From positions 2,253 through 66,252 of the forward strand of contig JBAZKV010000008.1 of NCBI GenBank assembly GCA_041650635.1: DNA of 64,000 nt, written 5' to 3'. The translations under genes were made by a program, and so were the position numbers. Source of the stretch: Candidatus Margulisiibacteriota bacterium (lineage in GTDB: Bacteria; Margulisbacteria; WOR-1; JAKLHX01; JBAZKV01). Each line of letters opens with the position of its first letter. Position 1 is the first letter of the stretch. This document shows positions 1 through 30,916 of the stretch, in pieces. The notes under the pieces are model-generated. The model ran no database searches. It was not told the DNA's origin and worked only from the letters and a program-made list of their open reading frames with translations.

Positions 1-2
1 TA

Positions 3-941
3 GATGACCACTGTTTTAACTTGCTATACGAGCGCTGGAACAATATTCAGGACTATTCACCGGTTAGACAAGCCTATATTGCCAATTCGTATCTTGGTTT
101 TTTGGGCGAACCTATGGATTATTACCGTGTCCCCAACTGGCACGGGGTAGAGATGGTGCGCAGTTTTCGGGACGGGTTTGGCCGCCCCGTTTATCAGGCT
201 TTGCTTGACACCGGCGAGATGAGAGGGGTCGATCCAGAACATATGTCATGGAGTCTTTCTGGCGACATATACCTCAAAGAAAAATGGAAGATTGACACAG
301 GCAATAAGCTGCCGCGAATCGGATGGAACGACATCCTGACCAGGATGCTTTTTAAACACCTTATAGAACAATACGAAGAAGCTCCCAATACGAACATGAT
401 ATTCAGGTCAACCCCTCTCTATTATTTAGATTCTCTTCTCAGCCAAGAACCGTCAAACGGTTACTTCTGGTTCTCATTTTGCAGACAATATTCTGCCACT
501 TTCAACAATAAAAAGAGCTCTCCAGAAGGAGCCGTTAAACAAATAAGACATTTCCTGAAGGATGGAATTGATCTTTCTGCCATCGTCCATCTTGCAGACG
601 GCGGCTTGTCCTGGAAGATAAGCGGTCCGGACCAGATACTACCTCCAGAACAAATCCTACCAGACGGCATTGTTGCAGGCTTAAGGGAAGCCTGGGAAAT
701 CACCCATCCGGAAGTGCGCCAGCTGGTAGAATTCGAGTTGGATACACCATCTATGTCAACGCTCATATGGACATTCATGGAAAGGATAAGGAACGGATGG
801 ATAGAGGGGCTCTCAGAAATTCCGTCAGAAACGGGAGATTTTGTCGCAAAGTTTGACCGCGGGTGTTATCCGACCTTCAAATTGCCGGGAGTTTGTTGGA
901 ATCGTGCCTCTTTCTCGTATTATAACCTGTCCGATCTCTAA
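3..941 (+). CDS. Hypothetical protein, probably 5'-truncated by the window edge
   Basis: Frame is open from position 3 to the stop at 941 (track starts at TTG 21). No family motif recognised. Confidence 0.65.
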   Translation, partial: DDHCFNLLYERWNNIQDYSPVRQAYIANSYLGFLGEPMDYYRVPNWHGVEMVRSFRDGFGRPVYQALLDTGEMRGVDPEHMSWSLSGDIYLKEKWKIDTGNKLPRIGWNDILTRMLFKHLIEQYEEAPNTNMIFRSTPLYYLDSLLSQEPSNGYFWFSFCRQYSATFNNKKSSPEGAVKQIRHFLKDGIDLSAIVHLADGGLSWKISGPDQILPPEQILPDGIVAGLREAWEITHPEVRQLVEFELDTPSMSTLIWTFMERIRNGWIEGLSEIPSETGDFVAKFDRGCYPTFKLPGVCWNRASFSYYNLSDL

Positions 942-952
942 TGCCATCACCC

Positions 953-1993
953 CTAGCGTATCAGCCCTTCCAGCCAATTCTTTGCAGCAGGCGTTTCCGA
1001 AACACAATATTGATGCATCTCCAGTTTTTTGAGCAGTCCCAAAGGAGTAGGATAAGCAAATTCGAACGGAGGGACAACTGAAGCCATGTCGCGCACCTGG
1101 TCCGAAATATCGGTTAGCGCCACGATCCCTCTTTCGTAGTCTCCCAGAAATTGGGGGGCTATCCCCAGCATCAGAGAGCGTCTGAACATCCTTGAGCCGT
1201 CAAGGTCCTTATCAGGGTCCCATTGAACATAATTGGGGTTTAATTCCGCATCATTGTAGAACCCGTCCTCGGAATAATAGTGAACCCCCATGATTGGGTC
1301 AAGCAGATGGGACCTTTCAAGGAGTTTCTCAAAAGTGCTTCTCATAAGGTCAACCGGGATCACTCTATCTCTGCCGGGCGCAGTTGCCCACTCGCTTCTT
1401 TTCATGGTCCACAGGAACGACGGTTTTATCCAGACCCGGCTTCTTTTTAAAAAGGTTCCCGAAAGAACATGATTGGCCAGGAAAAAGTCAGCCCCTTCGT
1501 CGTTCATGTTCTGATAGACCCTTATCGTCTCGTCCCCGTAGTTTGCCCTTATCATTCTTCTGAAAGGAAAATGCCAGCCAAGGGTATTTACGGAATACGC
1601 TCTGCCAAGATCTTCCGGCCAGTCCGCTTGTCCCGACAAAGTCAACCGTACTTCCTTACCGCGCCGGGATATTTTATCAATGCTCAATGGCTCCGTAAAT
1701 GCCGCGTCCTGCCTGTCCAGGACATTAATATGCCCTCTGTCTGATAAAACCTGCTCTCCTACACACGGCTTCACAGCAAGTTCAATAGAGGCGCCGTTCC
1801 GCTTAATATCCCTGACCAACCCAAAGAATTCATCCCCTCTCGGGAACATGTCAAGCACCTGATAATGGGCCCCAAGCCTTTCATAGGCTTCGATGAATTG
1901 AGGCCTCAAGCGGTCATGCTTTCTCCCCTCGGGCCTGAATACGGCCTCTGCTCTGGTGTAAGGCATTAAGCTGATCCTGGCTGGCATGCGCAT
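953..1993 (-). CDS. Hypothetical protein; C-terminal half may have a degenerate PlsC/LPLAT acyltransferase-like fold
   Basis: 346 aa with an AAAGGA RBS. Ordered motifs FFLANH, IPVD, YYSEDG, FRRS, FAYPTPL loosely follow PlsC blocks, but HX4D is not intact. Confidence 0.6.
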   Translation of the reverse strand: MRMPARISLMPYTRAEAVFRPEGRKHDRLRPQFIEAYERLGAHYQVLDMFPRGDEFFGLVRDIKRNGASIELAVKPCVGEQVLSDRGHINVLDRQDAAFTEPLSIDKISRRGKEVRLTLSGQADWPEDLGRAYSVNTLGWHFPFRRMIRANYGDETIRVYQNMNDEGADFFLANHVLSGTFLKRSRVWIKPSFLWTMKRSEWATAPGRDRVIPVDLMRSTFEKLLERSHLLDPIMGVHYYSEDGFYNDAELNPNYVQWDPDKDLDGSRMFRRSLMLGIAPQFLGDYERGIVALTDISDQVRDMASVVPPFEFAYPTPLGLLKKLEMHQYCVSETPAAKNWLEGLIR

Positions 1994-2067
1994 TTGTCCT
2001 TTCTTTGACTAAAAGACCATCTGTAGGTATATCGGCTGTCTTGGAGGCGGATTTCAATTTTGCAGGA

Positions 2068-3303
2068 CTATATCGCAGGTTTGCCGAACAGATCATGCCT
2101 GCCTGATGAGGATATGACCGCTCTGATAAATTCTCCGAGGCTAACTTTCTTTGCATTTTTCACATGCACTCTTCCGTCTATCTCGGGAGCATCCCTAAAA
2201 GACCTCCCGACGAGGTCCTTGCCTTTCCTCCCTTCGATGAGGACCTCCAGAGTTCGGCCCGCAAGTTTTGCGTTGATCTTTCTTGAGATACCGGCCTGCA
2301 GCTTCATCAGTTCGCACGCCCTTCTGCGCTTTACTTTTTCCGGGACCTGTCCTTTCATCATAAAAGCCTTGGTCCCCTTTTCCCTGCTGTAGGGAAAAAC
2401 CCCGAGCCGGTCAAACTTTGCCTGTTTTATGAACTCTTTGAGGTTTTCAAAATCCCTCTCCGTCTCTCCCGGAAAACCGACTATGACCGAAGTCCTTATC
2501 GCAATTCCGGGCATCATTTCCCTCAGTAATTTCAATTGTATTTCAATTGTATTTCTACCGTATTTCCTGCGCATCGATCTTAATATCCTATCCTCCGAGT
2601 GTTGTATCGGCAGATCTATATACTTAACTATCTTCTTTTCTTCTGCCATTACTTTGATAGTGCTTTGCGACAGATGCCCGGGATGCGCGTACATCAGCCT
2701 GATCCAGCGTATCCCTTTGATCTTTGCGGTCAACTTTAAAAGTCGCGCAAGATAAGGATAAGCGGTCGTATCCTGCGCGATATAGATTATTTCCTTGACT
2801 CCCCTCTTTGCCAGCCCTTTGACCTCAGCCAGGATGTCCCGGACCTTGCGGTGCCTTAATCTTCCTCTTATCTTTGGGATAAGACAATATGTGCAATTGT
2901 TATTGCAGCCCTCGGATATCTTTACATACGCAAACCACGGCTGCGTTGCCTTGATCCTAGGCACTCCGCACTCATAAAGATTTATGCTATCTATAATTCC
3001 ATCGATTCTCCGTACGGGCGATTCATGAATCGCCCCTCCAATTTTTCTTAAATACTCCGGCAAACATCCAGCGACCAATAACTGCCTGCACCTGCCCTTT
3101 TCCTTCCACTTGGCCATCTCTCTAATAACTGCCGCCGCCTCATCTCTGGCAGCTTTCAAAAATGCGCAGGTGTTCACGACTATAGTATCGGCTTCTTTGG
3201 GATTTAAGGTGATCTGGTGACCGCTTGAAGTAAACTTCCCCATCAGGACTTCGCTGTCTGTGAGGTTCTTGGGGCAGCCGAGGCTGACAAAAAAGACCTT
3301 CAT
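2068..3303 (-). CDS. rimO: Ribosomal protein S12 methylthiotransferase RimO
   Basis: [25 protein letters not shown] radical SAM motif, C-terminal TRAM with DAPEIDG. ATGA overlap with trpB. Confidence 0.93.
3012..3039. repeat. 28-nt REP-like palindrome inside rimO (encodes GAIHESPV)
   Basis: GGGCGATTCATGAATCGCCC is a perfect 20-nt palindrome at 3016-3035, starting with GTAC. Confidence 0.8.
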
Positions 3304-4481
3304 TTTCTGAAGATAATATCGAGATCTTTGTCGCCGCGGCCGGAGAGGCAGACAACAACTACGGACTTTTTGCCGATCTTTCCTTTAAGCTTTGGAAGGT
3401 AGGCAAGAGCGTGGGAGGATTCAAGAGCCGGGATGATGCCTTCTTCGCGGGAAAGCAAGCGAAAAGCCTCGAGAGCTTCTTTATCGCTTACGGACACATA
3501 TCTTACCCTGCCGGTATCCTTTAAATAGGAATGCTCCGGCCCCACCCCGGGATAGTCAAGCCCCGCAGAAACAGAATGAGTGTCGCTTACCTGTCCGTCC
3601 TTTGTCTGCAATAGATAACTTTTGGCCCCGTGCAAGATACCGGGTTTGCCGTAGGCAAGCGGGGCTGAATTCTGGCAAGTGCCTTTGCCCCTGCCGCCTG
3701 CTTCAACGCCTATCAATTTGACTTTTTTATCATCAATAAAAGGATGGAACATCCCCATTGAGTTGCTGCCGCCGCCTACGCAGGCAATAAGATGCAAGAG
3801 GCCTCGTGTACTACATATTTTATTTAACTGAACCTTTGTTTCCATGCCGATCACGCTTTGAAAATCCCTGACCATCATCGGATAAGGATGAGGTCCGATG
3901 CAGGAGCCGATGCAGTAAAAAGTTTTTTCCGGATCGCTCATCCAGTCTCTCAGGGCCTCGTTAACGGCCTCCTTGAGAGTTGCCGTGCCGGACCGCACCG
4001 GGATCACCTCTGCCCCCAGCAGTTCCATCCTCAGCACATTAGGGGCCTGCCTTTTGATATCCTGCTCCCCCATATAGACCACGCATTTTATCCCAAAAAG
4101 CGCAGCCACCGTAGCCGTTGCCACCCCGTGCTGCCCGGCGCCTGTTTCAGCGATCATTCTTTTCTTGCCCATCTTTTTGGCAAGCAGACCCTGGCCGATG
4201 CAATTATTTATCTTGTGAGCGCCTGTATGGCACAGGTCTTCTCTTTTTAGATAGACCTTAAATCCGTATTTGCGGCTTAGATTGCTGCAATAATAAAGCG
4301 GTGTGGGCCTGCCGGCGTAATGAGACAAATAATCGTTGAGTTCTTTTAGAAAGTTCCTGTCTTTCCTATATCTTGAGTAAGCGGCTTTAAGCTCTTCCAG
4401 GCAGGGCATCAGGGTTTCCGGCACAAAGGAACCGCCGTAATTGCTAAAATAACCCCTTTTGTCCGGCAGATCATATCTCAT
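3300..4481 (-). CDS. trpB: Tryptophan synthase beta chain
   Basis: [48 protein letters not shown]. Start moved to MRYDLP at 4481. Confidence 0.96.
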
Positions 4482-4488
4482 TTTCCCA

Positions 4489-4508
4489 ATTATAGCATGT
4501 GCTATAAT
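4489..4508. promoter_or_regulatory. Back-to-back extended -10 promoters for trpB (-) and leuS (+)
   Basis: ATTATAGCA-TG-TGCTATAAT gives TGCTATAAT on both strands, 7 nt and 11 nt from the two ATGs. Confidence 0.75.
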
Positions 4509-4519
4509 CTTAGAGATAA

Positions 4520-7033
4520 ATGTCAAATTACACCCCTAAAGAGATAGAGCCTCTCAGGCAAAGAGCCTGGCAGGAAAAAAAGCTTTTTGAAGCCGACAAT
4601 TCATCGAACAAGCCAAAATACTACGACCTCGTCATGTTCCCCTACCCTTCCGGCAAGATACACATGGGACATGTGCGAAATTATGCCATAGGAGATGTGC
4701 TCGCTAGGTACAAGAGGATGAAGGGTTTTAATGTCCTCCATCCGATCGGCTGGGACGCCTTTGGCATGCCGGCAGAAAATGCTGCCATCAAGAACAGCTC
4801 TCATCCCAGGGACTGGACCACAAAATGCATAGCGGACATGACCGTCCAGTTGAAAAGACTGGGACTTTCGTACGACTGGTCAAGGGAAGTGACCACCTGC
4901 AGAGAGGATTACTACAAGTGGACACAGTGGATCTTTCTGAAATTCTTTGAAAAAGGCCTGGCATACAGGAAAAAGGCAAAAGTGAACTGGTGCCCTAAAT
5001 GCGAAACTGTCCTGGCCAACGAGCAGGCAAAGGACGGAAAATGCTGGAGATGCGACAGCGCTGTTCGATCAAAGGACATAGAACAATGGTTCTTTAAAAT
5101 AACGCAGTACGCGCAAAGGCTCCTTGATGACATAGAAAAACTGGAAGGCTGGCCCGAGAGCGTTAGGATAATGCAGAGAAACTGGATAGGACGCTCCGAA
5201 GGAACAAGCATAGAGTTCGCTATAAAGGGTTTGGATAAGAAGCTTAAGATATTTACCACCAGGCCGGACACTCTTTTCGGGGTAACCTATATGACCCTTG
5301 CCCCAGAAAACCCGCTAACCGTAGAGTTGTCGCAAGGAACAAGACAGGAGAAAGAGGTCCTTTCCTATATAGAGAGCGTAAAAAGAAAGGACCCTTCGCT
5401 GCGCCAGGTGTCGGAAGAAAAGACCGGAGTGTTCACGGGGGCTTATGCGATAAACCCGGCCAACAACGAGACAATACCGATCTGGACTTCCGATTATGTC
5501 CTAATGGAGTACGGCACCGGCGCTGTCATGGCAGTTCCGGCCCACGACCAGAGAGATTTTGAATTCGCAAAAAAATTTGATCTTCCGATAAAAGAGGTAA
5601 TCGTTCCTAATGGTCCCTCACCCCGGCCTTTGGCCACCCCTCTCCCAACCCCTCGACTACGCTCGGGGCAAGAGGGAGAGGGGCCGGAGATCAGGGCGGC
5701 CTACACTCCCCCCGGCACCATGGTCAATTCCGCACAATTCAACGGCATGGACAGCAATAAGGCCATCGATGCAATAACCCTCTGGCTTGAAGAAAAAGGC
5801 ATCGGCAAAAAAGAGGTTAATTTTAAGCTGAGGGATTGGCTAATATCCCGCCAGAGGTATTGGGGTGCGCCTATTCCCATCGTATATTGCAATAAATGCG
5901 GGGCAGTTCCGGTACCGGATAAAGACCTTCCGGTAAAATTGCCCTATGATGTCAAATTCACGGGGGAAGGCGGTTCTCCCCTGCTGAAGGCTAAAGATTT
6001 TATCAGCACTGCCTGCCCCAAATGCGGCGGAAAGGCAAGCAGGGAAACCGACACGCTTGACACCTTTAACTGCTCCTCCTGGTATTTCTTAAGGTACACG
6101 AACACAGAAAAGGATTCTGACACGCCTTTTGAGCCAAAGGACCTCAAATACTGGCTTCCCGTAGACCAGTATATAGGCGGCATAGAACATGCGATATTGC
6201 ATCTTCTTTACTCAAGGTTCTTCTGCAAAGTTCTGAGCGACATGGGATTTATCCCTGTGGACGAGCCCTTTAAGAACCTTTTGACGCAGGGAATGGTGGT
6301 AAAAGACGGTGCAAAAATGAGCAAGTCCAAAGGCAATGTTGTTGATCCAGACTATATTATTGAAAAATACGGGGCGGACACAGCCAGGGTCTTTATCCTT
6401 TTTGCCTCTCCTCCGGAAAGGGAGCTTGAGTGGAGTGATGCGGGAGTTGAGGGGAGTTATAGATTTTTGAGCAGGATCTGGAGATTGATCAGCGACAATA
6501 AGCCCTCACCCCCTTCCCCTCTCCCAACCCCTCGACTACGCTCGGGGCAAGAGGTAGAGGGGCGCAGGACTGATGGGACCACCCGTATTCTTCACAAAAC
6601 CATAAAAGGTGTTTCAGAAGATATCGAGAGATTCTCCTTTAACACGGCGATCGCAAAGATAATGGAACTGCTTAACGCGCTTCAGGGTTCGCCTCTCGAT
6701 AAAAAGACCGCCGAGACGCTGCTTCTGCTGCTTTCCCCATTTGCTCCGCATGCAGCAGATGAGCTTTGGGAAAAAATAGGCAATACCGGAAGTACGCTGG
6801 AGCAGGACTGGCCGGGCTTTGATCCTGCTCTTGTTAAAGAAACCGAGATCGAGATACCAATACAGGTCAATGGAAAACTAAAGGACAGGATCATGATAGC
6901 AGCGGACCTGCCGGAGGAGCAGGTCAGGGAAAAAGCTCTTCAGTCAGAGAAGATAAAACAGTTGCTGCAGGGTAAAGAAATAGTAAAAGTTATATTTGCC
7001 AACAGAAAACTGGTAAATATAGTTGTCAGGTGA
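4520..7033 (+). CDS. leuS: Leucine--tRNA ligase
   Basis: [13 protein letters not shown] (HIGH), KMSKS, CP1 editing domain, YIGGIEHA. Confidence 0.98.
5615..5687 (+). repeat. Composite palindromic element in frame in leuS, copy 1
   Basis: CCCTCACCCC lead-in, outer CCCCTCTCCC/GGGAGAGGGG stem, inner 24-nt module at 5649-5672. Confidence 0.9.
6503..6562 (+). repeat. Composite palindromic element in frame in leuS, copy 2
   Basis: 6516-6562 matches 5637-5683 at 46 of 47 nt. Confidence 0.9.
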
Positions 7034-7040
7034 GTCCTGT

Positions 7041-8546
7041 CTAATCGTTAACCGTAAAATTCTCCAGCCTTAAATTCCCGCTAAGCGCTGGGTGAATGCA
7101 CATTTTGGTTGTACCTTCGGGTATCTTGAGGGAAACAGGCCCGTCCCGCCGCACCCTTTCGTCCGCCAGCACCGTATCAGTCCCAGAAGCATCATTTATG
7201 AATAATATCATTATTTCGCCTTTGATCTTAGATGCATCAAAGGCCAGTGTGCCCATAACAGCCCTGTCAAGGATAAAATAACCGCCGGCATCGTAATTGC
7301 CTTTTGGAGCGCTTATCTCGATCGCACCGTCTTCCAGCCTGAGCCTTGCACCTCCAAAAGCCCCCTGGGACAAGAAAAGGTCCTTAATATCGGCCCCGGA
7401 CTGCATATCCGGGACAATGGCAGCCGCCGGCTCCGATGCACCGGAATTCGGCTCCATGGGACTGGAAGAAAAGCTTCCGCTGTATTTTTCGAACTGTTCT
7501 CTCAGGCATCCGGTACCTCCATCTGTAATGGACCATATCCTTCTGCATCCCGTTTCTGTTTTTGTGGTATTAAAGTAGAACACCCCTGCCAGATCATCCT
7601 GAACTGCCAGTTCGAAAAGGCTTTTAAGGAACTGTGCCTCGCCCGCGGCTGAGCCCCCGTTGCCTTTGTCATATCCGGTCTCAAGTATCCAGAGCGGCTT
7701 TCCCGGATACAATTGCCTCATCAGTCCAATGGCCGGGCCAAACAGCGCCCTTGCATCCGCGGGGTTTCCTGTCCAGTCGGTACTGTAACCGTCCAGGCCT
7801 ATTCCGTCAACATATCTGTCCCCGGGATAATACGCCGAAGGATCTGTCCCAACATTTGGGTTCCAAAGCCAGGTCGCATATTTATTGGCCCCCGCTCTTT
7901 CAAATGTTTCCCACACATGGATGTAGGCTTCTTTGTATAATTCAGGATGCCCCGCCCAAGGATACCAATCGCCGTTCATTTCGTGGCCAAAGGTCAAAAG
8001 CATTGGGGTATTTTGTGCGGCAAGCCCGGCAGCAAATTTTGCCAGCCCGGTATCAAATTTGCCCGCGATAAGGTTCTCAAGACTGAAGGAATTATCCGAC
8101 TTGCCCTTCCAGCTCCACGGCTCCAGTTTTATAAGCGAAGCGATACCTTTTTGGCGCAAGACACTGACCGTTTCTGAAGGGAAATCAAATCCCTTGCCGA
8201 AGGCGTGAAACTGCAGTACCATGTCAAGATTCCCGCCTATCAGGCTGTTGAACCGGGAAACGCCGGCCGGGGAAAGAGCATCATCCAAAAAGGCCCCAAA
8301 ATAGATACCGTTAGGAGTTATCAGGTTCCTGGCTGGAGTCGCCTCCATCTGGGGCATTCCTCTCTGGATCTCACTGGCAGGAACAGGAACTTGGGGACGG
8401 GGCCTTTCACAGGAGGTAAGGCTCCCGGCTAAAAAAGCAGCCGGAAGTATTAAACGTCCGGATCTATACAAAGACGCCAAAACTGAATTGGATGTTCTCA
8501 TAACAGAGGTTTCATCTCCCTGTTTATTTGTCGGCATTTCCCTCAT
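7041..8546 (-). CDS. Glycoside hydrolase family 26 protein, probable lipoprotein, with C-terminal beta-rich extension
   Basis: FGHEMNGDWYPW, GLDGY, WILETG catalytic motifs; LTSC lipobox-like segment. Start uncertain (8546, 8537 or later). Confidence 0.8.
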   Translation of the reverse strand: MREMPTNKQGDETSVMRTSNSVLASLYRSGRLILPAAFLAGSLTSCERPRPQVPVPASEIQRGMPQMEATPARNLITPNGIYFGAFLDDALSPAGVSRFNSLIGGNLDMVLQFHAFGKGFDFPSETVSVLRQKGIASLIKLEPWSWKGKSDNSFSLENLIAGKFDTGLAKFAAGLAAQNTPMLLTFGHEMNGDWYPWAGHPELYKEAYIHVWETFERAGANKYATWLWNPNVGTDPSAYYPGDRYVDGIGLDGYSTDWTGNPADARALFGPAIGLMRQLYPGKPLWILETGYDKGNGGSAAGEAQFLKSLFELAVQDDLAGVFYFNTTKTETGCRRIWSITDGGTGCLREQFEKYSGSFSSSPMEPNSGASEPAAAIVPDMQSGADIKDLFLSQGAFGGARLRLEDGAIEISAPKGNYDAGGYFILDRAVMGTLAFDASKIKGEIMILFINDASGTDTVLADERVRRDGPVSLKIPEGTTKMCIHPALSGNLRLENFTVND

Positions 8547-8578
8547 ATGATTTCAGCTTTTTATAGTATAATTCAAAC

Positions 8579-9310
8579 ATGAATGTTGCAAAAAAACGCT
8601 CCTCAAAAAGGAGGTCTCGCCGCACAGATACCGTAAAAGCGCTTTCCGAAATAAGCCGCACTATCACTTCGGATCTTTTGATAGAGGACATTCTTGCTTC
8701 GATAGTGGAAGTAACCGCGAAATTGATGGGCTCCAATATCTGCTCCATTTTTCTTCTGGACAGCGAAAAAAACCTGCTGGTGAACAAAGCGTCCCAAAGC
8801 GTAAGCGCACTCTATAACAATAAGCCCCCGCTAAAGGCTGGCGAGGGTATCGCGGGAAAGGTGCTTTTGCTCAACAAGCCCGCCGCCGTTAAGGATGTCA
8901 AAAAAGAGCCGGAGTACAAATACAGGGACATCGCCAAAAAAGAGGGGCTATGCTCTCTATTGTGCGTGCCCCTGGCGGTAAAAGGAAAGGCTATCGGCGT
9001 TATCAACTCCTATACTTCCAAACCTCATGCTTTTACAGGGACAGAGATCGAGGTCCTTAGCGCGATAGCATCGCTTGCGGCAATGGCCATAGAGAACACA
9101 GGCCTGCTGATGAAGGCAAAAAGCGTTGAGGAAGAGCTGCAATCGCGCAAATCTATCGAAAGGGCCAAAGGGATCCTTATGAGGGACGAGGGGCTTTCCG
9201 AAGAGGACGCTTATCTGAGGATACAAAGATTCTCTATGGACTCGCGCAAGACCATGAGAGAGATTGCAGACTCCCTTATCCTGAGTTATAATCTTAGAAG
9301 GCTCAGGTGA
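8579..9310 (+). CDS. GAF + ANTAR domain RNA-binding regulator
   Basis: GAF (LLCVPLAVKGKAIGVIN) followed by ANTAR (IERAKGILM..LSEEDAY..IQRFSMDSRKTMREIA). Confidence 0.92.
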   Translation: MNVAKKRSSKRRSRRTDTVKALSEISRTITSDLLIEDILASIVEVTAKLMGSNICSIFLLDSEKNLLVNKASQSVSALYNNKPPLKAGEGIAGKVLLLNKPAAVKDVKKEPEYKYRDIAKKEGLCSLLCVPLAVKGKAIGVINSYTSKPHAFTGTEIEVLSAIASLAAMAIENTGLLMKAKSVEEELQSRKSIERAKGILMRDEGLSEEDAYLRIQRFSMDSRKTMREIADSLILSYNLRRLR

Positions 9311-9313
9311 ACC

Positions 9314-10714
<1,401 letters not shown>

Positions 10715-10739
10715 CTCTTTCTAAAGGTCCTGGCTCCAA

Positions 10740-10766
10740 GGGGCGGGTTTTCCCGCCCCTTTTTTT
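10740..10766 (+). terminator. Rho-independent terminator after gdhA
   Basis: GGGGCGGG-TTTT-CCCGCCCC followed by T7. Confidence 0.88.
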
Positions 10767-10849
10767 GCTTTCGATACCCAATTCCTGAAATTCCAAAAAA
10801 TATCCTTCGACAACTTCTTGTGAACAGCATAATCACAAAGGAGAAATAG

Positions 10850-12844
10850 ATGCCGACAACGCCGCTTATAAGGACTATAGCAGGAATGCCGGAATTTTCG
10901 GGCAGGCTGGGAACAGAAGTTCTTAGAAGTATGGTGATCAGGGATAACAATTCAGGGTTCTATCACTCCAGAGGACAGGCCCCCTTGTCCGTAATGATAA
11001 ACGGTCCCCAGCTGGCACCTTTTCTTGGTGTGAGTCAGCCGCCGCTTTATTACACAATGACCGCTTCCGGACAGGTCCATACAGGCAATGTCAGCTGTAT
11101 CAGGCTGGCAACCGATCTTGCCAAAGACATGGGTTTTAAGAACCCTCTGGCCGAGGTCTGTCTTGACGGGGGAAAGTCAGTCTTATATCTTTCCAAAGGG
11201 GGTTATTTTGCGGTCACCTGCGTGTACGGGGATCCCGATCTATTTAAGAGAGGGGATGTTATCGCTAAAGGCGGGGTCAGGATAATGGCGGAAGCCGGTC
11301 TTGCCGAAACAGCCATCCTAAACATGATCGAGCCTACTGTCTCACAATACCTGCGAGCTTTTGTAGATCTTGGCACCTTGGGCTTCAGCCGCTCCGAAGG
11401 CCCCGATATGAAACCGGCCTGCCTGGACGAAGGAGCATTAATGGGGCTGATGGACCGCATAGGAAGGCAGGCAGAAGACGATCTTGGCGTGCAGTTGGTC
11501 CCTTTTACGACAAGCGGACCCGGAGAACTGGGGTTCTTTAACCACGACGAATGGAGAGGGACTTCTTACGGACATCTTGAATGTCTTTGCGCATTGTTGT
11601 CCAATGCCTCCGTACTTTCACATTTTGGCATAGACCGCTCAAACCCGATCACTATGAACATTCAGGGCTACGGAGAAGTCGGTTCCAATATCGTCAGGCT
11701 TCTAAGGGAAGTGGAAAGATATTCAAGGTACGGATTTGCGGTTTCCGGAATATCTGATGAATCGGGGGCTTTTTATAATCCCTCGGGGTTTTCTTTGGAT
11801 CTTCTTTACGAGCTTGCCCAAGAAAGAGAGCGCGGCTGGGGCATTAATGCAAGCACTCCTTTCACCTTGGCCGCCAGTTCCCACTATAGGACTATTGCCC
11901 CGCATCAAATAGAAAGGGACGCTCTGATCTTTATGCCGGCAGTCATTTCTATAGCAGCCGGACCGCCTTATGTTATAAGAGATACCAATGATGTTTCAAG
12001 ACTTCAAACCAGGATCTGGGCTCCTGTTGCTAACGCTCCTCTCGGGACAAAGACTTCGTCCGGAGAAGAGATCAGGCAGATAGAAACGGCGATGCAAGAC
12101 AAAAGGATCATTAACCTGCCTGCATGGATGCTCAATTTTGGAGGGATAGCACTTTCAAAAGAAGAGATACTCCACAGGCTTATGGCCGGAGGCATACATA
12201 ATATGACGGATCCCCTAACAAGAGCCTGGCTAAAGGAACATGTTAACGAAGGCGATGTTAGCGACACAGCCTGGACAAATATGGGGTGGGCTTTGCACGA
12301 ATGGGCAAAAGTCGGCTACGGATCCCCGATAAGCGATATTTTGGGAAACCGCATAGCCCATATTCAAGAAAGAAGAAGGCAGATACTCATGGGATGGGAC
12401 AGAAGCGATAGCCTGCCTGGAAATTTAATGAGGATGGACAGCGCCACCATGAGAGCAAAAATGGAAGTAATGGCAAATGACTTCTCAAGCGAAGAACTGG
12501 AGAACATGAGGCGTCTTTTGACCGACTGGGACGCTCCGGAAGAGGAAAGAAGGGTTGCCGCCGATGTTTTAGGAAAGCTCTGTTCAAAGGGCTGCCAAAA
12601 CGATTTCTTGGAAATAATTGAAAGGGGCTTAACAGCAGATCTTCAAACGCTCGCACAGAGCACTGTCATGTTCAGGAACGCAGCCACCGGCCTCGGGTAC
12701 ATCCTCGAAGGCAGGGCTGCCACGCACGGGGACATCTTGAACAGATTAAAGGAAGTTCTCATAGTGCTGAAGTCCCAAAACACCGAAGAGGCTTTCGGCA
12801 AGATCGTGGCGCTCGAATGGCTCTTGGACAAACTTGGTTCCTGA
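10850..12844 (+). CDS. Highly divergent Glu/Leu/Phe/Val dehydrogenase-like protein with HEAT-like C-terminal extension
   Basis: LAKDMGFKN..DGGKSV, GPDM, IQGYGEVG, ISDESGAFYNPSG, ANAP and LNFGG occur in ELFV-dehydrogenase order; AAAGGAG RBS. Confidence 0.65.
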   Translation: MPTTPLIRTIAGMPEFSGRLGTEVLRSMVIRDNNSGFYHSRGQAPLSVMINGPQLAPFLGVSQPPLYYTMTASGQVHTGNVSCIRLATDLAKDMGFKNPLAEVCLDGGKSVLYLSKGGYFAVTCVYGDPDLFKRGDVIAKGGVRIMAEAGLAETAILNMIEPTVSQYLRAFVDLGTLGFSRSEGPDMKPACLDEGALMGLMDRIGRQAEDDLGVQLVPFTTSGPGELGFFNHDEWRGTSYGHLECLCALLSNASVLSHFGIDRSNPITMNIQGYGEVGSNIVRLLREVERYSRYGFAVSGISDESGAFYNPSGFSLDLLYELAQERERGWGINASTPFTLAASSHYRTIAPHQIERDALIFMPAVISIAAGPPYVIRDTNDVSRLQTRIWAPVANAPLGTKTSSGEEIRQIETAMQDKRIINLPAWMLNFGGIALSKEEILHRLMAGGIHNMTDPLTRAWLKEHVNEGDVSDTAWTNMGWALHEWAKVGYGSPISDILGNRIAHIQERRRQILMGWDRSDSLPGNLMRMDSATMRAKMEVMANDFSSEELENMRRLLTDWDAPEEERRVAADVLGKLCSKGCQNDFLEIIERGLTADLQTLAQSTVMFRNAATGLGYILEGRAATHGDILNRLKEVLIVLKSQNTEEAFGKIVALEWLLDKLGS

Positions 12845-18005: not shown

Positions 18006-19079
18006 TTATACTATTTTTTCTGCTTCCAGCCTTGCCCACTTTTCCGCTTCAAGTATCTGACCGAGTTTGGGACTCTTGATAAACCTGTGTTTTTTCATAA
18101 CGGAAGAAACTATCCCGGGAATGTCATAAAACCCTATCTTTGCATTTAAGAACAGCTCCACCGCGGTATCGTTGGCTGCAGACAGGACAGCAGGAAGGGT
18201 CCCTCCAGTTTTCCCCGCCTTGTATGCAAGTTTAAGGCACGGGAATCTGTCAGTGTCCGGCTTTTGAAATGTGAGCTCGCCCGTTTTTGCAAGATCAACG
18301 CTGCCGTACGATCTGGGCTGCCTGTTCGGGTATGTCAGAGCATATTGTATCGCCGTTCTCATATCCGGAACCCCTATCTGGGCAAGAACGGAGCCGTCCA
18401 CAAATTCGACCATTGAATGTATCACGCTTTGGGGATGAACAACAACCTCGATCTTTTCATAAGGTATGCCAAAAAGATGGTGAGCTTCTATTACTTCTAA
18501 TCCCTTATTCATGAGCGTGGCACAGTCTATAGTTATCTTTGGCCCCATTTTCCAGGTCGGGTGCTTCAGCGCCTGTTTTGCCGTTACTTTGGAAAGCTGC
18601 TTTTTAGAATATTTGCGGAAGGGACCTCCGGATGCGGTAAGTATGATCCTCTTTATTTTTTTATTTGGACATTGGGAATTGGACATTGGGAATTGGACAT
18701 TATTCTGGGCTTCTCCCTGAATACACTGAAACACCGCGCTATGCTCGCTATCCAGCGGCAATATCTGCGCCCCATATCTTTTTGCCTCCGCCATAACAAC
18801 ATCTCCCGCAGCAACCAGTATCTCTTTGCTGGCAAGGGCAATGGTCTTTCTCTTTTTTATGGCAGCAATAACGGCAGCAAGCCCGGCGGTCCCGACAATG
18901 GCCATTACAACAATATCGGTTTTGGGGTCGGAGGCTATTTTTACAAGGCCTTCTCCGTCATTGTGGCCTAGATAGGCAAGCCCTGACACGCGGAATAAAG
19001 AAGGAAAGGCAGACACCACATCAAGCGCCTGCCTCCCTATAGATCCCGTTGAACCAAGTACCGCGATCCCCTTTTTCAT
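18006..19079 (-). CDS. dxr: 1-deoxy-D-xylulose 5-phosphate reductoisomerase
   Basis: LGSTGSIG, LASKE, PLDSEHSA, LTASGGPF, HPTWKMGPKIT, NKGLEVIEAH. Confidence 0.95.
   Translation of the reverse strand: MKKGIAVLGSTGSIGRQALDVVSAFPSLFRVSGLAYLGHNDGEGLVKIASDPKTDIVVMAIVGTAGLAAVIAAIKKRKTIALASKEILVAAGDVVMAEAKRYGAQILPLDSEHSAVFQCIQGEAQNNVQFPMSNSQCPNKKIKRIILTASGGPFRKYSKKQLSKVTAKQALKHPTWKMGPKITIDCATLMNKGLEVIEAHHLFGIPYEKIEVVVHPQSVIHSMVEFVDGSVLAQIGVPDMRTAIQYALTYPNRQPRSYGSVDLAKTGELTFQKPDTDRFPCLKLAYKAGKTGGTLPAVLSAANDTAVELFLNAKIGFYDIPGIVSSVMKKHRFIKSPKLGQILEAEKWARLEAEKIV
18665..18699. repeat. Heptamer tandem tract inside dxr
   Basis: TTGGACA/TTGGGAA alternating, 5 units; encodes VQFPMSNSQCP. Confidence 0.88.
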
Positions 19080-25958: not shown

Positions 25959-27473
25959 ATGAAGAAGATACTATCCGCAGCATTGATCTTGTTTTTTCTT
26001 TCCGCATCGCTTGGAGCAGCTGTGCTTAACGGCCTCCGCCACAGCAGCGACAGCGAAAAGATCAGGCTTGTTCTTGACCTTGATTCCACGGCAGTTTTCC
26101 GCCACAGCTTATCAGACACCGGGATAACGCTTGAAATAGATGATTCTGTGGCGGCAGAAGGTCTTTCGGAGTACAGGATCCTTGATGCATTGCTCGGCCC
26201 AATTTCTATGACAGGCTCAAATAGGACCCTCAAAATAACGATCCCGACCCATTACAGGGTCGAAGGCCGGGTCTTTGCTCTGTCGCAGCCGGACAGGATA
26301 GTTGTTGACATAAACCGCACGGAAATATCCCAAGCCCCCGCCTCAGAACAATCCCCCAAAGCCAGAAAAACTCCGTTTGAGCTTCCCTCATGGTTCGGTA
26401 AAGCTCAGGAAATATCAGAAGGCCTCTATTATCTTCCGATCGATCAGGACATAAAAGGTAAAGCCGTCAGGTCGCACGCGGTCCTGGCATCACTAACAAA
26501 ATTAGATCTGACCCCGGCAATAGTCGTGCCGCAGATCAAGGGAAAGGATACCGTTCCGGTATTCAGCCCGTTGTTCGATTTTTTTGGCAGGCTTTTTGGA
26601 GAAGAAAAAGAGGAACGCTATGTTCACTTTACCAGAAGAACGGTCAATACCTTTGTCAAATCGCTCGGAGGCCTTGCCGGGGTGAACGGGACCTTTTTTG
26701 GGGCGGGGGGAACTCCGCTGGGGGTATTGATAATCGACGGACAGCTGGTATCTTCTCCCTTGTTCAACAGGACAGCGCTTATAGTGAGTAAGGACGGCAG
26801 TGCAAGGATAGCACCGGTAAAAATGGAAGGGTATCTAAAACTTGAGAACGGCCAGACACTGGGGTTTTCCGCCCTTAATCAGCCGGTGGGACAGAATCAG
26901 ATCGTTGTCCAGACCCCTTATTACCAGATGACCGACCCGTCCGGAGCCACTACCAACATTGTTGTTGAAGATGACAGAGTGGTCGATATCACATACGGCG
27001 AAACAAAAGTTCCCGGAAGAGGGTTCGTGGTCTGTGCCAACGGCGCTGCCGGCGAGGCGATAAGGCCCCTGTTCAAAAAAGGCGATACCGTGAAGTGGTT
27101 CTTTATCACGTCTCCGCCGTTTGACAATATAAAACATGTTATCGGAGGAGGCCCCAGGCTCGTGCAAAAAGGATATGTTAATGTCACTTCAATTGAGGAG
27201 AATTTTAGGAGGGATGTTGCCTCCGGCAGAGCGGCCCGTACTGCGGTCGGCATAACAAAAAGCGGAGATATCATACTTGCGATGGTGGAAAAGAACCAGG
27301 CCAGCATAGGCGCCACGCTTGAAGAACTGGCATCTCTTATGGTAAAACTCGGGGCCTATGAAGCTATGAACTTTGACGGGGGAGGCTCTTCTGCTCTTTC
27401 GATAAGCGGAAAATCGATGAACAGCGGCTCGCCCAGAGCGGTCAGCAACGCCATCGTGGTCATTCCCAAATAA
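25959..27473 (+). CDS. Phosphodiester glycosidase (NAGPA/DUF2233) family protein with N-terminal AMIN-like domain
   Basis: Signal peptide, IRLVLDL and PDRIVVD, VNGTFF, ARTAVG, AMNFDGGGSS. Confidence 0.85.
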   Translation: MKKILSAALILFFLSASLGAAVLNGLRHSSDSEKIRLVLDLDSTAVFRHSLSDTGITLEIDDSVAAEGLSEYRILDALLGPISMTGSNRTLKITIPTHYRVEGRVFALSQPDRIVVDINRTEISQAPASEQSPKARKTPFELPSWFGKAQEISEGLYYLPIDQDIKGKAVRSHAVLASLTKLDLTPAIVVPQIKGKDTVPVFSPLFDFFGRLFGEEKEERYVHFTRRTVNTFVKSLGGLAGVNGTFFGAGGTPLGVLIIDGQLVSSPLFNRTALIVSKDGSARIAPVKMEGYLKLENGQTLGFSALNQPVGQNQIVVQTPYYQMTDPSGATTNIVVEDDRVVDITYGETKVPGRGFVVCANGAAGEAIRPLFKKGDTVKWFFITSPPFDNIKHVIGGGPRLVQKGYVNVTSIEENFRRDVASGRAARTAVGITKSGDIILAMVEKNQASIGATLEELASLMVKLGAYEAMNFDGGGSSALSISGKSMNSGSPRAVSNAIVVIPK

Positions 27474-28428
27474 AGCTGTCCCCTGCCTCTATCCTGTAGC
27501 CCCGTGCGAACTCCAGAGAGGACATCGCTTTGGAATTTTCCGGCTGGACCCGCGTTATCAATAGGCCGCCTTCACCCGTGGAGATCACAATTCCCTGATC
27601 TTTTATGACATCCATGACCCGGCCGGGGGGTGCATCAGAAGATCCGGTAAAGACGCCCCGGCGGGGCGTCTTTACAAAGAGTTTTCCATCCAACAGTTTT
27701 ATTACCGTCCCCTTATATCTGCATACCGCCCCCGGCCAAGGAGTAAAGGCCCTTATCTTGTTCCTGATCTCTTCCGCAGGTCTGGAAAAATCTATGATGC
27801 CATCCGTTTTCTTGATCGTCGCGCAATATGAGGCAAGGGATTCCTCTTGCCGCCTTGACCCTATGCCCTTGACCCTATCATTATCGCTTAAAACTCTCAA
27901 CAATAATCCCGCTCCCGCCTTGAACAATTTATCCGTCAATGTCCCTGAATTGTCTTCGTCATTTATAACGATCTTTTCCTGGGCTATTATGTCCCCTGCG
28001 TCAAGGCGTTCAATTATCTTCATGATAGTAACACCGGTCTCTTTGTCGCCGTTCAATAGTGCCGCCTGAACTGGCGAGGCTCCGCGGTATTTCGGAAGAA
28101 ATGACGCATGAACATTGATACAGCCATATTTTGGAATATCCAGGAATTCTTTTGTCAGTATCTTTCCGTAAGCAACAACAACAATAAGATCAGGTTTTAT
28201 CCGGGAGATCTCTTTAACGAATGCGGCATCCCCGACGTTTTCCGGTTTATAAACCGGCAGGTTATGTTCTTTTGCCAGGGCTGAGACCTTTGAGCTTAGG
28301 ACCCTTAACCCTCTGCCGGTGGGCTTGTCGGGCCGGGATATCACCGCGGCCACATCCTTTTTGGCGGAAAGCAGGCAGGAAAGGATATCCGCAGCGCCTT
28401 GGGGGGTCCCCATGAAAACGAGCCTCAT
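27460..28428 (-). CDS. fmt: Methionyl-tRNA formyltransferase
   Basis: RLVFMGTP, INVHASFLPKYRGASP, LDAGDI, FTPWPGA. Confidence 0.96.
   Translation of the reverse strand: MRLVFMGTPQGAADILSCLLSAKKDVAAVISRPDKPTGRGLRVLSSKVSALAKEHNLPVYKPENVGDAAFVKEISRIKPDLIVVVAYGKILTKEFLDIPKYGCINVHASFLPKYRGASPVQAALLNGDKETGVTIMKIIERLDAGDIIAQEKIVINDEDNSGTLTDKLFKAGAGLLLRVLSDNDRVKGIGSRRQEESLASYCATIKKTDGIIDFSRPAEEIRNKIRAFTPWPGAVCRYKGTVIKLLDGKLFVKTPRRGVFTGSSDAPPGRVMDVIKDQGIVISTGEGGLLITRVQPENSKAMSSLEFARGYRIEAGDSFIWE
27647..27675. repeat. 29-nt REP-like palindrome inside fmt (VKTPRRGVFT)
   Basis: GTAAAGACGCCCC-GGC-GGGGCGTCTTTAC, a perfect 13-bp inverted repeat. Confidence 0.88.
27853..27880. repeat. Heptamer tract inside fmt
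   Basis: CCTTGAC CCTATGC CCTTGAC CCTATCA. Confidence 0.55.
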
Positions 28429-28921: not shown

Positions 28922-30916
28922 CTATCCCAGGTTAACGGGATCAACATCAACGCTCAGTCTTATCTGCCTGTTCTTTGACAGGACAGCAACCATCTCTTTG
29001 AGCTTTGATTTAATGATAGCCAAATCCTGTCCCTTAATCAACATCTGATATCTGACCATACCGCGAAGTTTTTCCAGAGGGGCTTTTACCGGCCCCAGTA
29101 TCTCTATTGTCCGATCAAAGGCTTTGAGCTGCGAACAAATCTGCAGCGCCTCTTGCCTTACCGCCTCCCGGTCTTTTCCGGAGAGTATCACATTGATCAG
29201 GAAAGAGAACGGAGGATATCCGAAATCCTTTCTGGACATTATCTCCGTGGCATAGAACTTTTTGTAGTCCCCTTCCACCGCGCTTGTGACGGCATAATGC
29301 TGAGGATTAAGGGTTTGGATCACAACCCTGTCCGGAGGTATAGCGTTGTTATCTCCTGCGGTTATACGAAAAAGGAAGTCGAACGCGGACTCGGCCGCCC
29401 GAAAGTCGGGAGAGTTCAGTGCTGCGTCCGCCGAGATCACCGCGACAAGCCCGAACTTCTTTTTTGGCAGGGCCTTTAGCACCATCTGCGTCCCTATAAG
29501 CACCTGCGCTTCGTCCTTTACAAAGGCCTCAAGAGCTATCGAAGCGTTCTTTTTGGAACTGAGGTTGTCCCTGTCTATCCTTATGGTCCTGACCTTCGGG
29601 AACAGTTTTCCTATCTCGGATTCTATCTTCTGGGTCCCCGCACCGAAATAATTGATCGAATGGCTGAAGCATTTAGGACACACGATCTTTTTTTCCGAAA
29701 GAAAACCGCATCTGTGGCACCTGATAGTGCCATCCGGAGAATGATATGTAAGGGAAAGCGAACAGTTGGGACATTCTATCGCATTACCGCAGGCGCCGCA
29801 GACCAAAAATGGTGCGTATCCCCTCCTGTTCTGGATCAACATTACCGGCTTTTGTTCATCAAGCGATCGCGCTATCTCTTCCTTTAGAACTGAGCTTAAC
29901 TGCCTTGACCTTTCTTCCTTTGTGTCAACAACAAGGATCTCCGGCTTGCTGTCATTGACGATTTGATCTTTCTCGCTAAAAAAATACTTTCCGTTCTGAG
30001 CCCTAAAAAAAGACTCTACGCTTGGGCTTGAAGAGCTCAGGATCAACCGGGCGGACAGTTTTTCTGCCATGAACAAAGCGGTATCCCTAACATGGTATTT
30101 GGGGGTCTGCTCGGATTTATAGGTGAACTCGTTTTCATCCTCAACAATAATAAGTCCGGGATAGTGCACGGGCGCAAATATCGCGCTTCTTGTCCCTATG
30201 GCTATTTTTGCTTTCCCCAGGTACAGCCTTTCCCATTCACAAAACCTTTCTTTTTCGGTCATATTGCTATGGATAACGGCAACAATATCTCCGAAGTTCT
30301 TTTTGAATTCTTCCACGAACCGGTTGTCATGGCCTATCTCGGGCAGAAGCAGTATGACCCCCCTGTTTTCTGAAAGGGTTTTCTGGGCCTCTTTAATGTA
30401 TGTACCCGTCCTTTCTGACAAACCCGCATTAAAAAGCAGGACAGGCTTCCCAGCATCTTTCTTAGTTTGTTCTTTGGGAATTGGAAATTGTTTGCCCCGA
30501 TCCCTGTCGAGGGGGAAATTGCTTGCCCCGAGCCCTGTCGAGGGGGAAATTGGAAATTCTATCCTTCTCTTCCCCGCCGTCTTCTCATAAGCCTCTATCC
30601 CCGGAGGAAGGAACAGCCTTAGGGCGCTGCCGAACAGGCAGCAGTAGTAAAAAGAGATCCACTTTGCTGTCTCAACTGAGCGTCGGGAAAACAGAGGAAC
30701 TCTGGTCCTTATCTCAAGTATTTCTTTAAGGCGCTCTACCCCGGCTGGGGCTTCTTTTGAAATAGCCGTGATATAGCCGACCGCTTTTGCCCTGCCAAAA
30801 GGGATAAGCACCTGAATCCCGACAGCAGCTCTTGAGGTTGATTCCGCAGGGATCTTATATGTATATTCTTTGTCGGTCTGGGGAGAAACCTTGGAAAGGA
30901 CTACCTGGACATACAT
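28922..30916 (-). CDS. priA: Primosomal protein N' (PriA)
   Basis: LLPEI, GTRSAIFAP, NRRGYAP, Cys-rich zinc motifs, GTQKIE, VDVDP terminus. Walker A region looks degenerate. Confidence 0.9.
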   Translation of the reverse strand: MYVQVVLSKVSPQTDKEYTYKIPAESTSRAAVGIQVLIPFGRAKAVGYITAISKEAPAGVERLKEILEIRTRVPLFSRRSVETAKWISFYYCCLFGSALRLFLPPGIEAYEKTAGKRRIEFPISPSTGLGASNFPLDRDRGKQFPIPKEQTKKDAGKPVLLFNAGLSERTGTYIKEAQKTLSENRGVILLLPEIGHDNRFVEEFKKNFGDIVAVIHSNMTEKERFCEWERLYLGKAKIAIGTRSAIFAPVHYPGLIIVEDENEFTYKSEQTPKYHVRDTALFMAEKLSARLILSSSSPSVESFFRAQNGKYFFSEKDQIVNDSKPEILVVDTKEERSRQLSSVLKEEIARSLDEQKPVMLIQNRRGYAPFLVCGACGNAIECPNCSLSLTYHSPDGTIRCHRCGFLSEKKIVCPKCFSHSINYFGAGTQKIESEIGKLFPKVRTIRIDRDNLSSKKNASIALEAFVKDEAQVLIGTQMVLKALPKKKFGLVAVISADAALNSPDFRAAESAFDFLFRITAGDNNAIPPDRVVIQTLNPQHYAVTSAVEGDYKKFYATEIMSRKDFGYPPFSFLINVILSGKDREAVRQEALQICSQLKAFDRTIEILGPVKAPLEKLRGMVRYQMLIKGQDLAIIKSKLKEMVAVLSKNRQIRLSVDVDPVNLG
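30474..30558. repeat. Heptamer tract interrupted by two 24-nt hairpin modules inside priA
   Basis: TTGGAAA units; two are split TTG|24 nt|GAAA, with inserts at 30491-30514 and 30522-30545. Confidence 0.85.

Follow-up and report, generated by a model that had tools for sequence, protein, structure and literature searches.

The gene for leucyl-tRNA synthetase (leuS, encoding LeuRS) in the window analysed here, a 64,000-nucleotide stretch of a Candidatus Margulisiibacteriota contig (JBAZKV010000008.1), carries two closely similar repeat segments of 69 and 60 nt in the frame of the enzyme. Both are, with good confidence, in-frame insertions of non-coding-type repeat DNA, in which a triplex motif carries a nested 24-nt micro-repeat, in two hypervariable surface loops of LeuRS that tolerate them as coil. 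The case is real and ordinary in kind, since in-frame intragenic repeats have been described before, and it is unusual in its detail. The host gene is as follows.

4520..7033, plus strand: leuS, leucyl-tRNA synthetase, 837 aa (from the list of open reading frames, homologues and motif columns)

The leuS open reading frame (ORF) is intact. The HMGH, KMSKS and editing-domain motifs are present, the catalytic and editing motifs conserve the invariant motif columns of the homologue alignment, and the leucine-specific domain is absent. The closest database relatives of this LeuRS, from a set of 8000 homologues, are metagenome-assembled genomes (MAGs) of the Margulisbacteria/Saganbacteria (WOR-1), and the Thermus LeuRS structure (PDB 1H3N) is matched with E = 1e-278. 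Alignment to this structure places the first insert (site 1) at about residues 364-378, which we take to be the C-terminal part of the CP1 editing domain, and the second (site 2) at about residues 690-722, presumably in the helical anticodon-binding domain. The same two locations had been proposed in an earlier reading of this DNA made from its letters alone (hereafter, the sequence-only reading), which had also assumed that the loops were tolerant. The AlphaFold2 model (65 sequences; mean pLDDT 83.8) bears this out: pLDDT falls below 50 only at residues 370-388 (insert 1), 591-606 (KMSKS loop), 632-634 and 665-683 (insert 2), and both inserts are modelled as coil flanked by well-modelled elements.

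The two composites and their parts are distributed along leuS as follows.

5615..5683, plus strand: composite 1, 69 nt, residues 366-388 (23 aa), a triplex-motif repeat whose two loops each hold a nested element
5615..5624, plus strand: CCCTCACCCC, third-strand box of the triplex motif of composite 1 (complement GGGGTGAGGG on the minus strand)
5625..5636, plus strand: GGCCTTTGGCCA, mini-hairpin (from its fold) filling loop 2 of the motif, where copy 2 has CTT
5637..5646, plus strand: CCCCTCTCCC, 5' arm of a 10-bp hairpin
5649..5672, plus strand: 24-nt hairpin micro-repeat CCCCTCGACTACGCTCGGGGCAAG, nested in the AAA loop
5674..5683, plus strand: GGGAGAGGGG, 3' arm, perfect complement of the 5' arm
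6503..6562, plus strand: composite 2, 60 nt, residues 662-681 (20 aa), with the canonical motif CCCTCACCCC-CTT-CCCCTCTCCC-AA(24-mer)A-GGTAGAGGGG
6528..6551, plus strand: second 24-nt micro-repeat, identical to 5649-5672

The core of the repeat is a 47-mer, CCCCTCTCCCAACCCCTCGACTACGCTCGGGGCAAGAGGGAGAGGGG, located at 5637-5683 and again at 6516-6562, with 46 of 47 nt alike (G5676 vs T6555), as the sequence-only reading had reported. The copies share 39 identical nucleotides, one mismatch and 8 more identical nucleotides, with identical junctions, and the single G>T change in composite 2 is non-synonymous and disrupts the stem. A search of the window returned exactly these two occurrences, and none was obtained in 100 dinucleotide-preserving shuffles. 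The starts lie 879 nt (293 codons) apart, so that both copies are read in one leuS frame, each encoding 15 residues. The full repeat is longer than was first recognised: CCCTCACCCC precedes both copies (5615-5624 and 6503-6512), followed by a spacer, GGCCTTTGGCCA in the first copy and CTT in the second. The left arm of copy 1 thus holds a GGCC-TTT-GGCC mini-hairpin, and its tail is CCGG where copy 2 has CGCAG. Both composites begin at a codon boundary and contain no stop codons. When the 24-mer (5649-5672; 6528-6551) is excised, CCCCTCTCCC-AAA-GGGAGAGGGG remains. Neither intein nor intron motifs were found in the segments, and an Rfam scan of 5550-6650 at a permissive E-value returned only chance matches to miRNA and snoRNA families.

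The claim that one element sits in the loop of another was substantiated by the recovery of both an uninterrupted outer form and independent copies of the 24-mer. The 23-mer hairpin CCCCTCTCCC-AAA-GGGAGAGGGG is present without interruption in at least 120 stretches of GTDB genomes, and the hosts listed include Planctomycetota, Pseudomonas, Chloroflexota, Nostoc, Synechococcus, Ignavibacteria, Peribacteria and a Margulisiibacteriota MAG. A CCCTCACCCC box lies 2-3 nt upstream in 59 of 84 uninterrupted copies from other genomes, with unrelated outer flanks, which defines the form found in many phyla as CCCTCACCCC-NNN-CCCCTCTCCC-AAA-GGGAGAGGGG. This arrangement matches both the pattern and the E. 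coli sequences published for a known family, the G/C-rich potential intrastrand triplex motif (TMECO, earlier PIT), described as 5'-CCCTCNCCC N3-6 GGGNGAGGG N3 GGGNGAGGG (Holder et al. 2015, NAR, PMC4666352; earlier work by Hoyne, Maher and colleagues is cited therein). TMECO has been reported in 3610 copies across 262 proteobacterial genomes, and cyanobacteria are rich in G/C-rich triplex motifs; the triplex forms in vitro, although a stable triplex was not detected in vivo, published tests revealed neither promoter nor terminator activity, and sequence variability is raised near the motif, which has been linked to local instability and recombination (PMC4666352).

The leuS composites present the published triplex orientation on the minus strand (C-arm, G-arm, G-box). 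The CCCCTCTCCC and GGGAGAGGGG arms pair at all 10 positions in copy 1 and at 9 of these in copy 2, within the approximately 9 nt and at most one mismatch of the triplex-motif hairpin, and both copies carry the third-strand box GGGGTGAGGG on the minus strand, with all 10 triplets against the purine arm allowed as far as can be read from the letters. The spacer of the G-box fits the pattern in copy 2 (3 nt) and lies outside it in copy 1 (12 nt). The hairpin loop, at 27 nt, also exceeds the 3-6 nt of the pattern, but it contracts to 3 nt (AAA) upon removal of the 24-mer. Since the uninterrupted form is common elsewhere, we read the leuS composites as interrupted members of the PIT/TMECO family. 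They share with it the same three boxes (CCCTCNCCC-type C-arm, GGGNGAGGG arm and GGGNGAGGG third strand) and 3-nt loops, as well as multicopy occurrence in many bacteria, including cyanobacteria, and an association with local sequence instability. They differ from it in their 10-nt stems, in the 24-nt insert held by loop 1 and the 12-nt hairpin held by loop 2 of copy 1, in their Margulisbacteria/Saganbacteria-type MAG host and in their location in coding sequence, with translation predicted; in published work, TMECO was mapped with respect to adjacent ORFs and the loci compared were intergenic.

The inner element, CCCCTCGACTACGCTCGGGGCAAG, is a member of a hairpin family with the consensus CCCYTCGAC-NNN-GCTCRGGGCAAG. 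The exact 24-mer is present in 49 GTDB species-representative genomes from very different phyla, including Patescibacteria (several classes), Acidobacteriota, Ignavibacteria, Gemmatimonadales, Acidimicrobiia, Turneriella, Microcoleus, Methylomirabilis, Planctomycetes and Bacteroidales. The exact sequence had no match in IMG/VR; a degenerate family pattern identified 31 viral contigs in this database, and the family as a whole spans at least 10 phyla as well as viral contigs. The flanks of the 49 bacterial copies show a preference for A at position -1 (25/49) and C at position +1 (37/49) and are random farther out, delimiting a unit of 24 nt with sharp edges, or 25-26 nt if the preferred A and C are counted. 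In 34 copies from viral contigs, the combinations C4:G17 and T4:A17 (CCCC...GGGG vs CCCT...AGGG) are maintained in all but one, and this pattern provides compensatory support for the short stem of the 24-mer.

Members of the family were found nested in their own copies (L134, L025, L160), within heptamer arrays (L014, L028, L146 and window priA, 30458-30560) and within hairpin loops of other elements (L009, L015, L163, L164 and the window). Open frames of 150 codons or more contain 34 of 50 instances, which are read in four different frames; of the six possible frames of the unit, five are open by our own count, and its length is a multiple of three. No recurrent gene was identified beside the element at the 49 bacterial loci, BLAST searches of PLSDB plasmids with a doubled 24-mer returned only chance matches, and target duplication at the insertions was not detectable.

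Two further settings of the 24-mer family were observed. In a group of related IMG/VR contigs (L132, L133, L145, L161 and L162), family members lie in a common large ORF and vary only in the loop triplet (ACA, AGA or GTA), a pattern suggestive of an old in-frame copy that has been evolving within a phage gene. On the minus strand of the window, at 30458-30560 in a priA-like ORF (28922-30916), two tandem 31-nt units, each with a variant of the 24-mer (CCCCTCGACAGGGCTCGGGGCAAG and CCCCTCGACAGGGATCGGGGCAAA), are embedded in AATTTCC/AATTCCC heptamers and read in frame. The encoded peptide (...FPISPSTGLGASNFPLDRDRGKQFPIP...) belongs to the linker that joins the N-terminal part of PriA to its helicase part, for which solved PriA structures offer no aligned counterpart.

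The metagenomic origin of the window, together with the excessive depth of the 39-mer common to both copies (28.6 against a depth of about 11), could point to a misplaced or chimeric repeat in leuS. The junctions were traced in Logan unitigs of a source-like landfill metagenome run (X1) containing 99% of the words of the region, in a wastewater run (X2) and a sludge run (X3), and in an NCBI MAG contig (L050). The X1 unitigs end precisely at the common 39-mer, each of the four junctions being represented by its own unitig at genome depth (10-13), and an 892-nt unitig (5654-6545) bridges the two copies, from the right side of the first to the left side of the second, in the order given by the assembly. 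Independent samples and assemblies reproduce the right junction of site 1 without difference (X2) and the copy at site 2 (L050, X3), and a third locus, described below, explains the surplus depth. Misassembly, which the sequence-only reading had named as a possible source of the pattern, is thus excluded as far as contigs allow, and we regard an artefact of this kind as extremely improbable.

Comparison with related genomes resolves the order in which the two loops were filled. The nearest relative (P0001, on contig L050) has a leuS gene 93% identical to that of the window and is syntenic with it over positions 1-11431. Its composite 2 differs from that of the window in two respects: the GGGAGAGGGG arm is intact, and the 24-mer has a synonymous G>T change. 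At site 1 (L050 8794-8841), where the window has composite 1, it presents instead a GTAG-tagged palindrome, GTAGCGAC-ACCGCATGCGAC-GTCGCTAC (VATPHATSL), between linkers that are equal in length to those of the window and strongly diverged. Because L050 has composite 2 but a different palindrome at site 1, the insertion at site 2 precedes the split from L050 and that at site 1 follows it. The proposal that the composite at site 1 is recent is borne out by these data, while the idea that both inserts were acquired together is not, since site 2 predates that split. The GTAG palindrome of L050 may be the older occupant of the site-1 loop; peptides resembling VATPHATSL (VETPHAASL, VDVPHAEH) were observed at site 1 in other relatives.

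A further homologue, P0002, at 79-83% identity, lacks both inserts. This, together with the homologue alignment, supports the conclusion that neither insert is ancestral LeuRS sequence, an alternative that the sequence-only reading had also raised. Sliding identity between the window and L050 is a mosaic, ranging from 80 to 100% per 300 nt with troughs at 3001-3300 and 5401-5700 (site 1). This pattern is consistent with strain recombination or with local instability around the repeats, and does not discriminate between them.

Across 120 LeuRS homologues, the baseline length is about 12 residues at site 1 and 15-23 residues at site 2. Many Margulisbacteria/Saganbacteria LeuRS present unrelated repeat-derived peptides at both loops (PSPxGRGDGGEG, VGAQYIAP, GNRDVQSQVS, KSEIRNPKSETN and others), and both loops are hence insertion hot spots. 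A comparison of insert-site DNA in five relatives outlined the variety of their contents; a LeuRS-based GTDB locus search contributed little, the relatives among the matches listed having at most 61% identity. The triplex motif occurs in the opposite orientation at the LeuRS insert sites of L286, and as two inverted motifs at site 1 of L287, the leuS locus of P0006. Site 2 of L287 holds a motif with the GGCC mini-hairpin (GGCCTTCGGCCA) in loop 2 and the CCGG tail seen in window copy 1, a left-arm type that recurs on a 2942-nt contig of X1. Loop 1 of this motif reads GCAAGC, resembling the 3' tail of the 24-mer (GCAAG+C), and could be either the footprint of a lost 24-mer or a chance match. In L288, loop 1 of the triplex motif is occupied by a different 21-nt element. 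A distinct LeuRS hairpin, GGAAACCGCGAC-GTTCA-GTCGCAGGTTTCC, is empty in L165 and at site 1 of L164, and filled at site 1 of L163 and site 2 of L164, where different variants of the 24-mer occupy the same loop position, each as a precise gain of 24 nt.

An exact 36-mer of the composite was used to look for further copies. It had no match in GTDB genomes, which implies that the genome of the window is not among the species representatives, and it identified a single locus, L051, in metagenome contigs. There, the composite (12766-12832) lies in frame in a flavoprotein gene, in a reading frame unlike that of leuS (16-residue peptide); it matches copy 1 at 100% identity over 48 nt and copy 2 at 94% over 67 nt. 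The depth of L051 in X1, X2 and X3 (about 10, 5 and 4-5, respectively) tracks that of the window. The possibility that it derives from a second organism, considered on the basis of unitig depths, was rejected given this correspondence. Since the depth of the common 39-mer unitig is about three times that of the genome, the genome holds about three exact composites, all of them in ORFs. X1 also contains a diverged copy of the composite on an 18,988-nt contig and a motif with the left arm of copy 1 and a different loop filling. The 64-kb window itself contains only two triplex motifs and four copies of the 24-mer family.

The orthologous flavoprotein gene of a 90%-identical species (L001) carries the composite, at about 2940-2990, with a 12-nt deletion. 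The missing 12 nt (CCCCTCTCCCAA) lie between direct CCCAACCCCTC repeats, and their loss, which is a slippage deletion, leaves the frame intact and removes the 5' arm of the hairpin.

Besides the triplex motif, both elements invite comparison with other described repeats. The small dispersed repeats (SDR1-8) of Nostoc punctiforme are reported to be 21-27 nt long, to form hairpins with compensatory changes and to be nested in themselves, in heptamer tandem repeats and in other small elements, and they are given as confined to the Nostocaceae (Elhai et al. 2008, Genome Res 18:1484). By description, the 24-mer resembles them in size class (24 vs 21-27 nt), sharp boundaries, compensated hairpin structure, nesting in itself, in heptamers and in other elements, and the absence of a transposase of its own. 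By the same comparison of descriptions, not of sequences, the 24-mer family differs from the SDRs in crossing phyla (at least 10, and viral contigs) and in having many copies in ORFs.

In-frame palindromic repeats in housekeeping genes are likewise already known. Intragenic GTAG/CGTC REPs have been reported as in-frame palindromes in such genes, with dual inserts and with examples in tRNA synthetase genes (Di Nocera et al. 2013, PMC3733652). These and the Rickettsia palindromic elements (RPE) are similar to the leuS inserts in being in-frame palindromes in housekeeping genes, sometimes two per ORF and also in tRNA synthetases, presumed to be located in loops and neutral; the composites are inserted in frame in loops of an ORF, with translation predicted. 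However, neither the composite nor the 24-mer has the GTAG or CGTC tag that stands 5' of the palindrome in RAYT-mobilised REPs and REPINs, they belong to other sequence families and sizes (60-69 nt for the composites, with sequence unrelated to the Rickettsia type and in a different phylum), and nesting of two families is undescribed for RPE and REP. GTAG-type elements are nonetheless present in this lineage, in the site-1 palindrome of L050 (GTAGCGAC...GTCGCTAC) and in miaA of the window. In the literature searched, no description was found of a triplex motif in coding sequence, of layered nesting, of lineage-wide LeuRS hot spots or of a cross-phylum 24-mer family.

The observations to be accounted for are the nesting itself, the independent existence of both types of element, the order in which the two sites were filled, the hot-spot character of both loops and, elsewhere in the same population, another gene with a third copy in frame. 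In the insertion reading, an outer unit of PIT/TMECO type holds the 24-nt hairpin micro-repeat in its hairpin loop, and the resulting stop-free composites of 60 and 69 nt would be translated as 20-23 residues of Pro/Gly/Ser/Arg-rich coil that the enzyme tolerates. The elements would be selfish or neutral, a character suggested by three features: insert content is unrelated between relatives, the reading frame of the same DNA varies from gene to gene, and one of only two changes at site 2 both breaks the stem and alters a residue. They may spread via a trans-acting activity aimed at single-stranded hairpin loops, or via ectopic gene conversion or repair between motif copies, and selection would do no more than filter for stop-free loop insertions in frame. 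The target would be hairpin loops exposed as single strands, because the 24-mer lies in loops in at least six independent contexts. The two motifs may have come to share the 24-mer either through ectopic gene conversion of the central hairpin between motif copies or through independent, position-specific insertion of one 24-mer variant into both.

Several points weigh against this account. It comes with no identified mobilising enzyme or mechanism, and the apparently low copy number (about three exact composites and one diverged) does not demonstrate active transposition. In the absence of a closely related empty site 2, the insertion boundaries are predicted from the consensus of the elements. 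Translation of the peptides is assumed, the only RNA run found (X25) covering neither insert, and the inserts could have a function as protein or as nucleic-acid structure. Finally, the identity of the 24-mer across phyla is hard to reconcile with known mobile-element biology.

The sequence-only reading had envisaged a recent duplication or conversion of a pre-assembled composite. In its simplest form, the hairpin and 24-mer of site 1 would have been copied from the older copy at site 2 within leuS, by intragenic duplication or gene conversion. Such an origin would account for the 39 identical nucleotides, the 8 more past a single mismatch and the identical junctions; site 2 is indeed the older, copy 1 has the ancestral G that L050 retains at site 2, and triplex motifs have been linked to local instability and recombination (PMC4666352). 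However, the two copies belong to different arm subfamilies, with distinct left arms (GGCCTTTGGCCA vs CTT) and tails (CCGG vs CGCAG), the arm type of copy 1 occurs elsewhere (L287 and the X1 contig), and no flank homology exists between the sites. L051, identical to copy 1 over 48 nt, is an equally possible donor, and the identical junctions are no proof of a single pre-assembled unit, since the 24-mer family reaches the same loop position independently in other LeuRS. The recent arrival at site 1 therefore stands, but simple duplication of copy 2 does not follow from it, and we consider an intragenic copy rather unlikely.

A benefit to the host appears improbable. The peptides might add a LeuRS function, such as a binding surface or the tuning of editing or tRNA contacts, or a triplex or hairpin on the template strand might regulate leuS, and it is true that site 2 has been maintained in two lineages with its frame intact, that most relatives have inserts in both loops and that the G-rich triplex orientation, from a reading of the sequence, is on the template strand. 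Yet insert content is unrelated across relatives, a non-synonymous, stem-breaking change is one of only two at site 2, and the flavoprotein gene reads the composite in a different frame. The inserts are also modelled by AlphaFold as coil with low confidence, and motifs of this type had no promoter or terminator activity and formed no stable in vivo triplex in published tests (PMC4666352). Removal before the mature enzyme is formed, by excision of a mini-intron-like RNA or by protein splicing, is very unlikely: nothing speaks directly for it, beyond the fact that the ends of the hairpin could in principle be brought together, whereas the segments are in frame and stop-free, so that nothing needs removing, intein or intron motifs and Rfam matches are lacking, and relatives carry unrelated inserts of many lengths.

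Other in-frame repeats were observed in the window. On the minus strand, at 18656-18702 in the dxr ORF (18006-19079), six in-frame heptamers (CAATGTC/CAATTCC, 42 nt), which are STRR-like tandem repeats in an essential gene, add 14 residues (NNVQFPMSNSQCPN) that the closest solved Dxr (6MH4) lacks. Also on the minus strand, at 27647-27675 in fmt (ORF 27460-28428), a perfect 14+1+14 palindrome, GTAAAGACGCCCCG-C-CGGGGCGTCTTTAC, is read in frame (VKTPRRGVFT); the encoded methionyl-tRNA formyltransferase exceeds the solved Fmt 4IQF in length by about 9-10 residues. On the plus strand, two in-frame palindromes lie at 43958-43985 and 44102-44141, the GTAG-tagged GTAGGGGCCGGTCGCGACAGGCCCTTAC (NVGAGRDRPLR) and AGGGCGAAT-GAT-AATTCGCCCCT (KVRANDNSPLP), in a gene whose translation reads as tRNA dimethylallyltransferase-like (miaA-like). 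The long minus-strand ORF listed over this gene looks spurious.

A broader proposal can be put forward tentatively, as a possibility that we judge somewhat less probable than its negation. The 24-nt unit CCCYTCGAC-NNN-GCTCRGGGCAAG could be a cosmopolitan and currently or recently active micro-element, among the smallest mobile DNAs, inserting precisely and without target duplication into single-stranded hairpin loops (those of triplex motifs, other palindromes and its own copies) and colonising, by virtue of its length and its open frames, the coding loops of essential genes across many bacterial phyla and their phages. If so, its identity across phyla would imply frequent horizontal spread, or a shared activity of host or phage origin that writes the 24-mer.

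At the level of LeuRS, a type of repeat so far examined for its position with respect to nearby ORFs, and as a source of 'genomic instability', can reside within the coding sequence of an essential enzyme, and two loops of this enzyme have become dumping grounds for many families of repeats across the lineage. For annotation, odd PSP...GEG or RLRSGQ peptides in housekeeping proteins are to be read as repeat DNA, not as domains. The natural pairs of filled and empty sites for a 24-nt element with one and the same sequence in distant phyla, in turn, make the movement of such tiny repeats directly testable.

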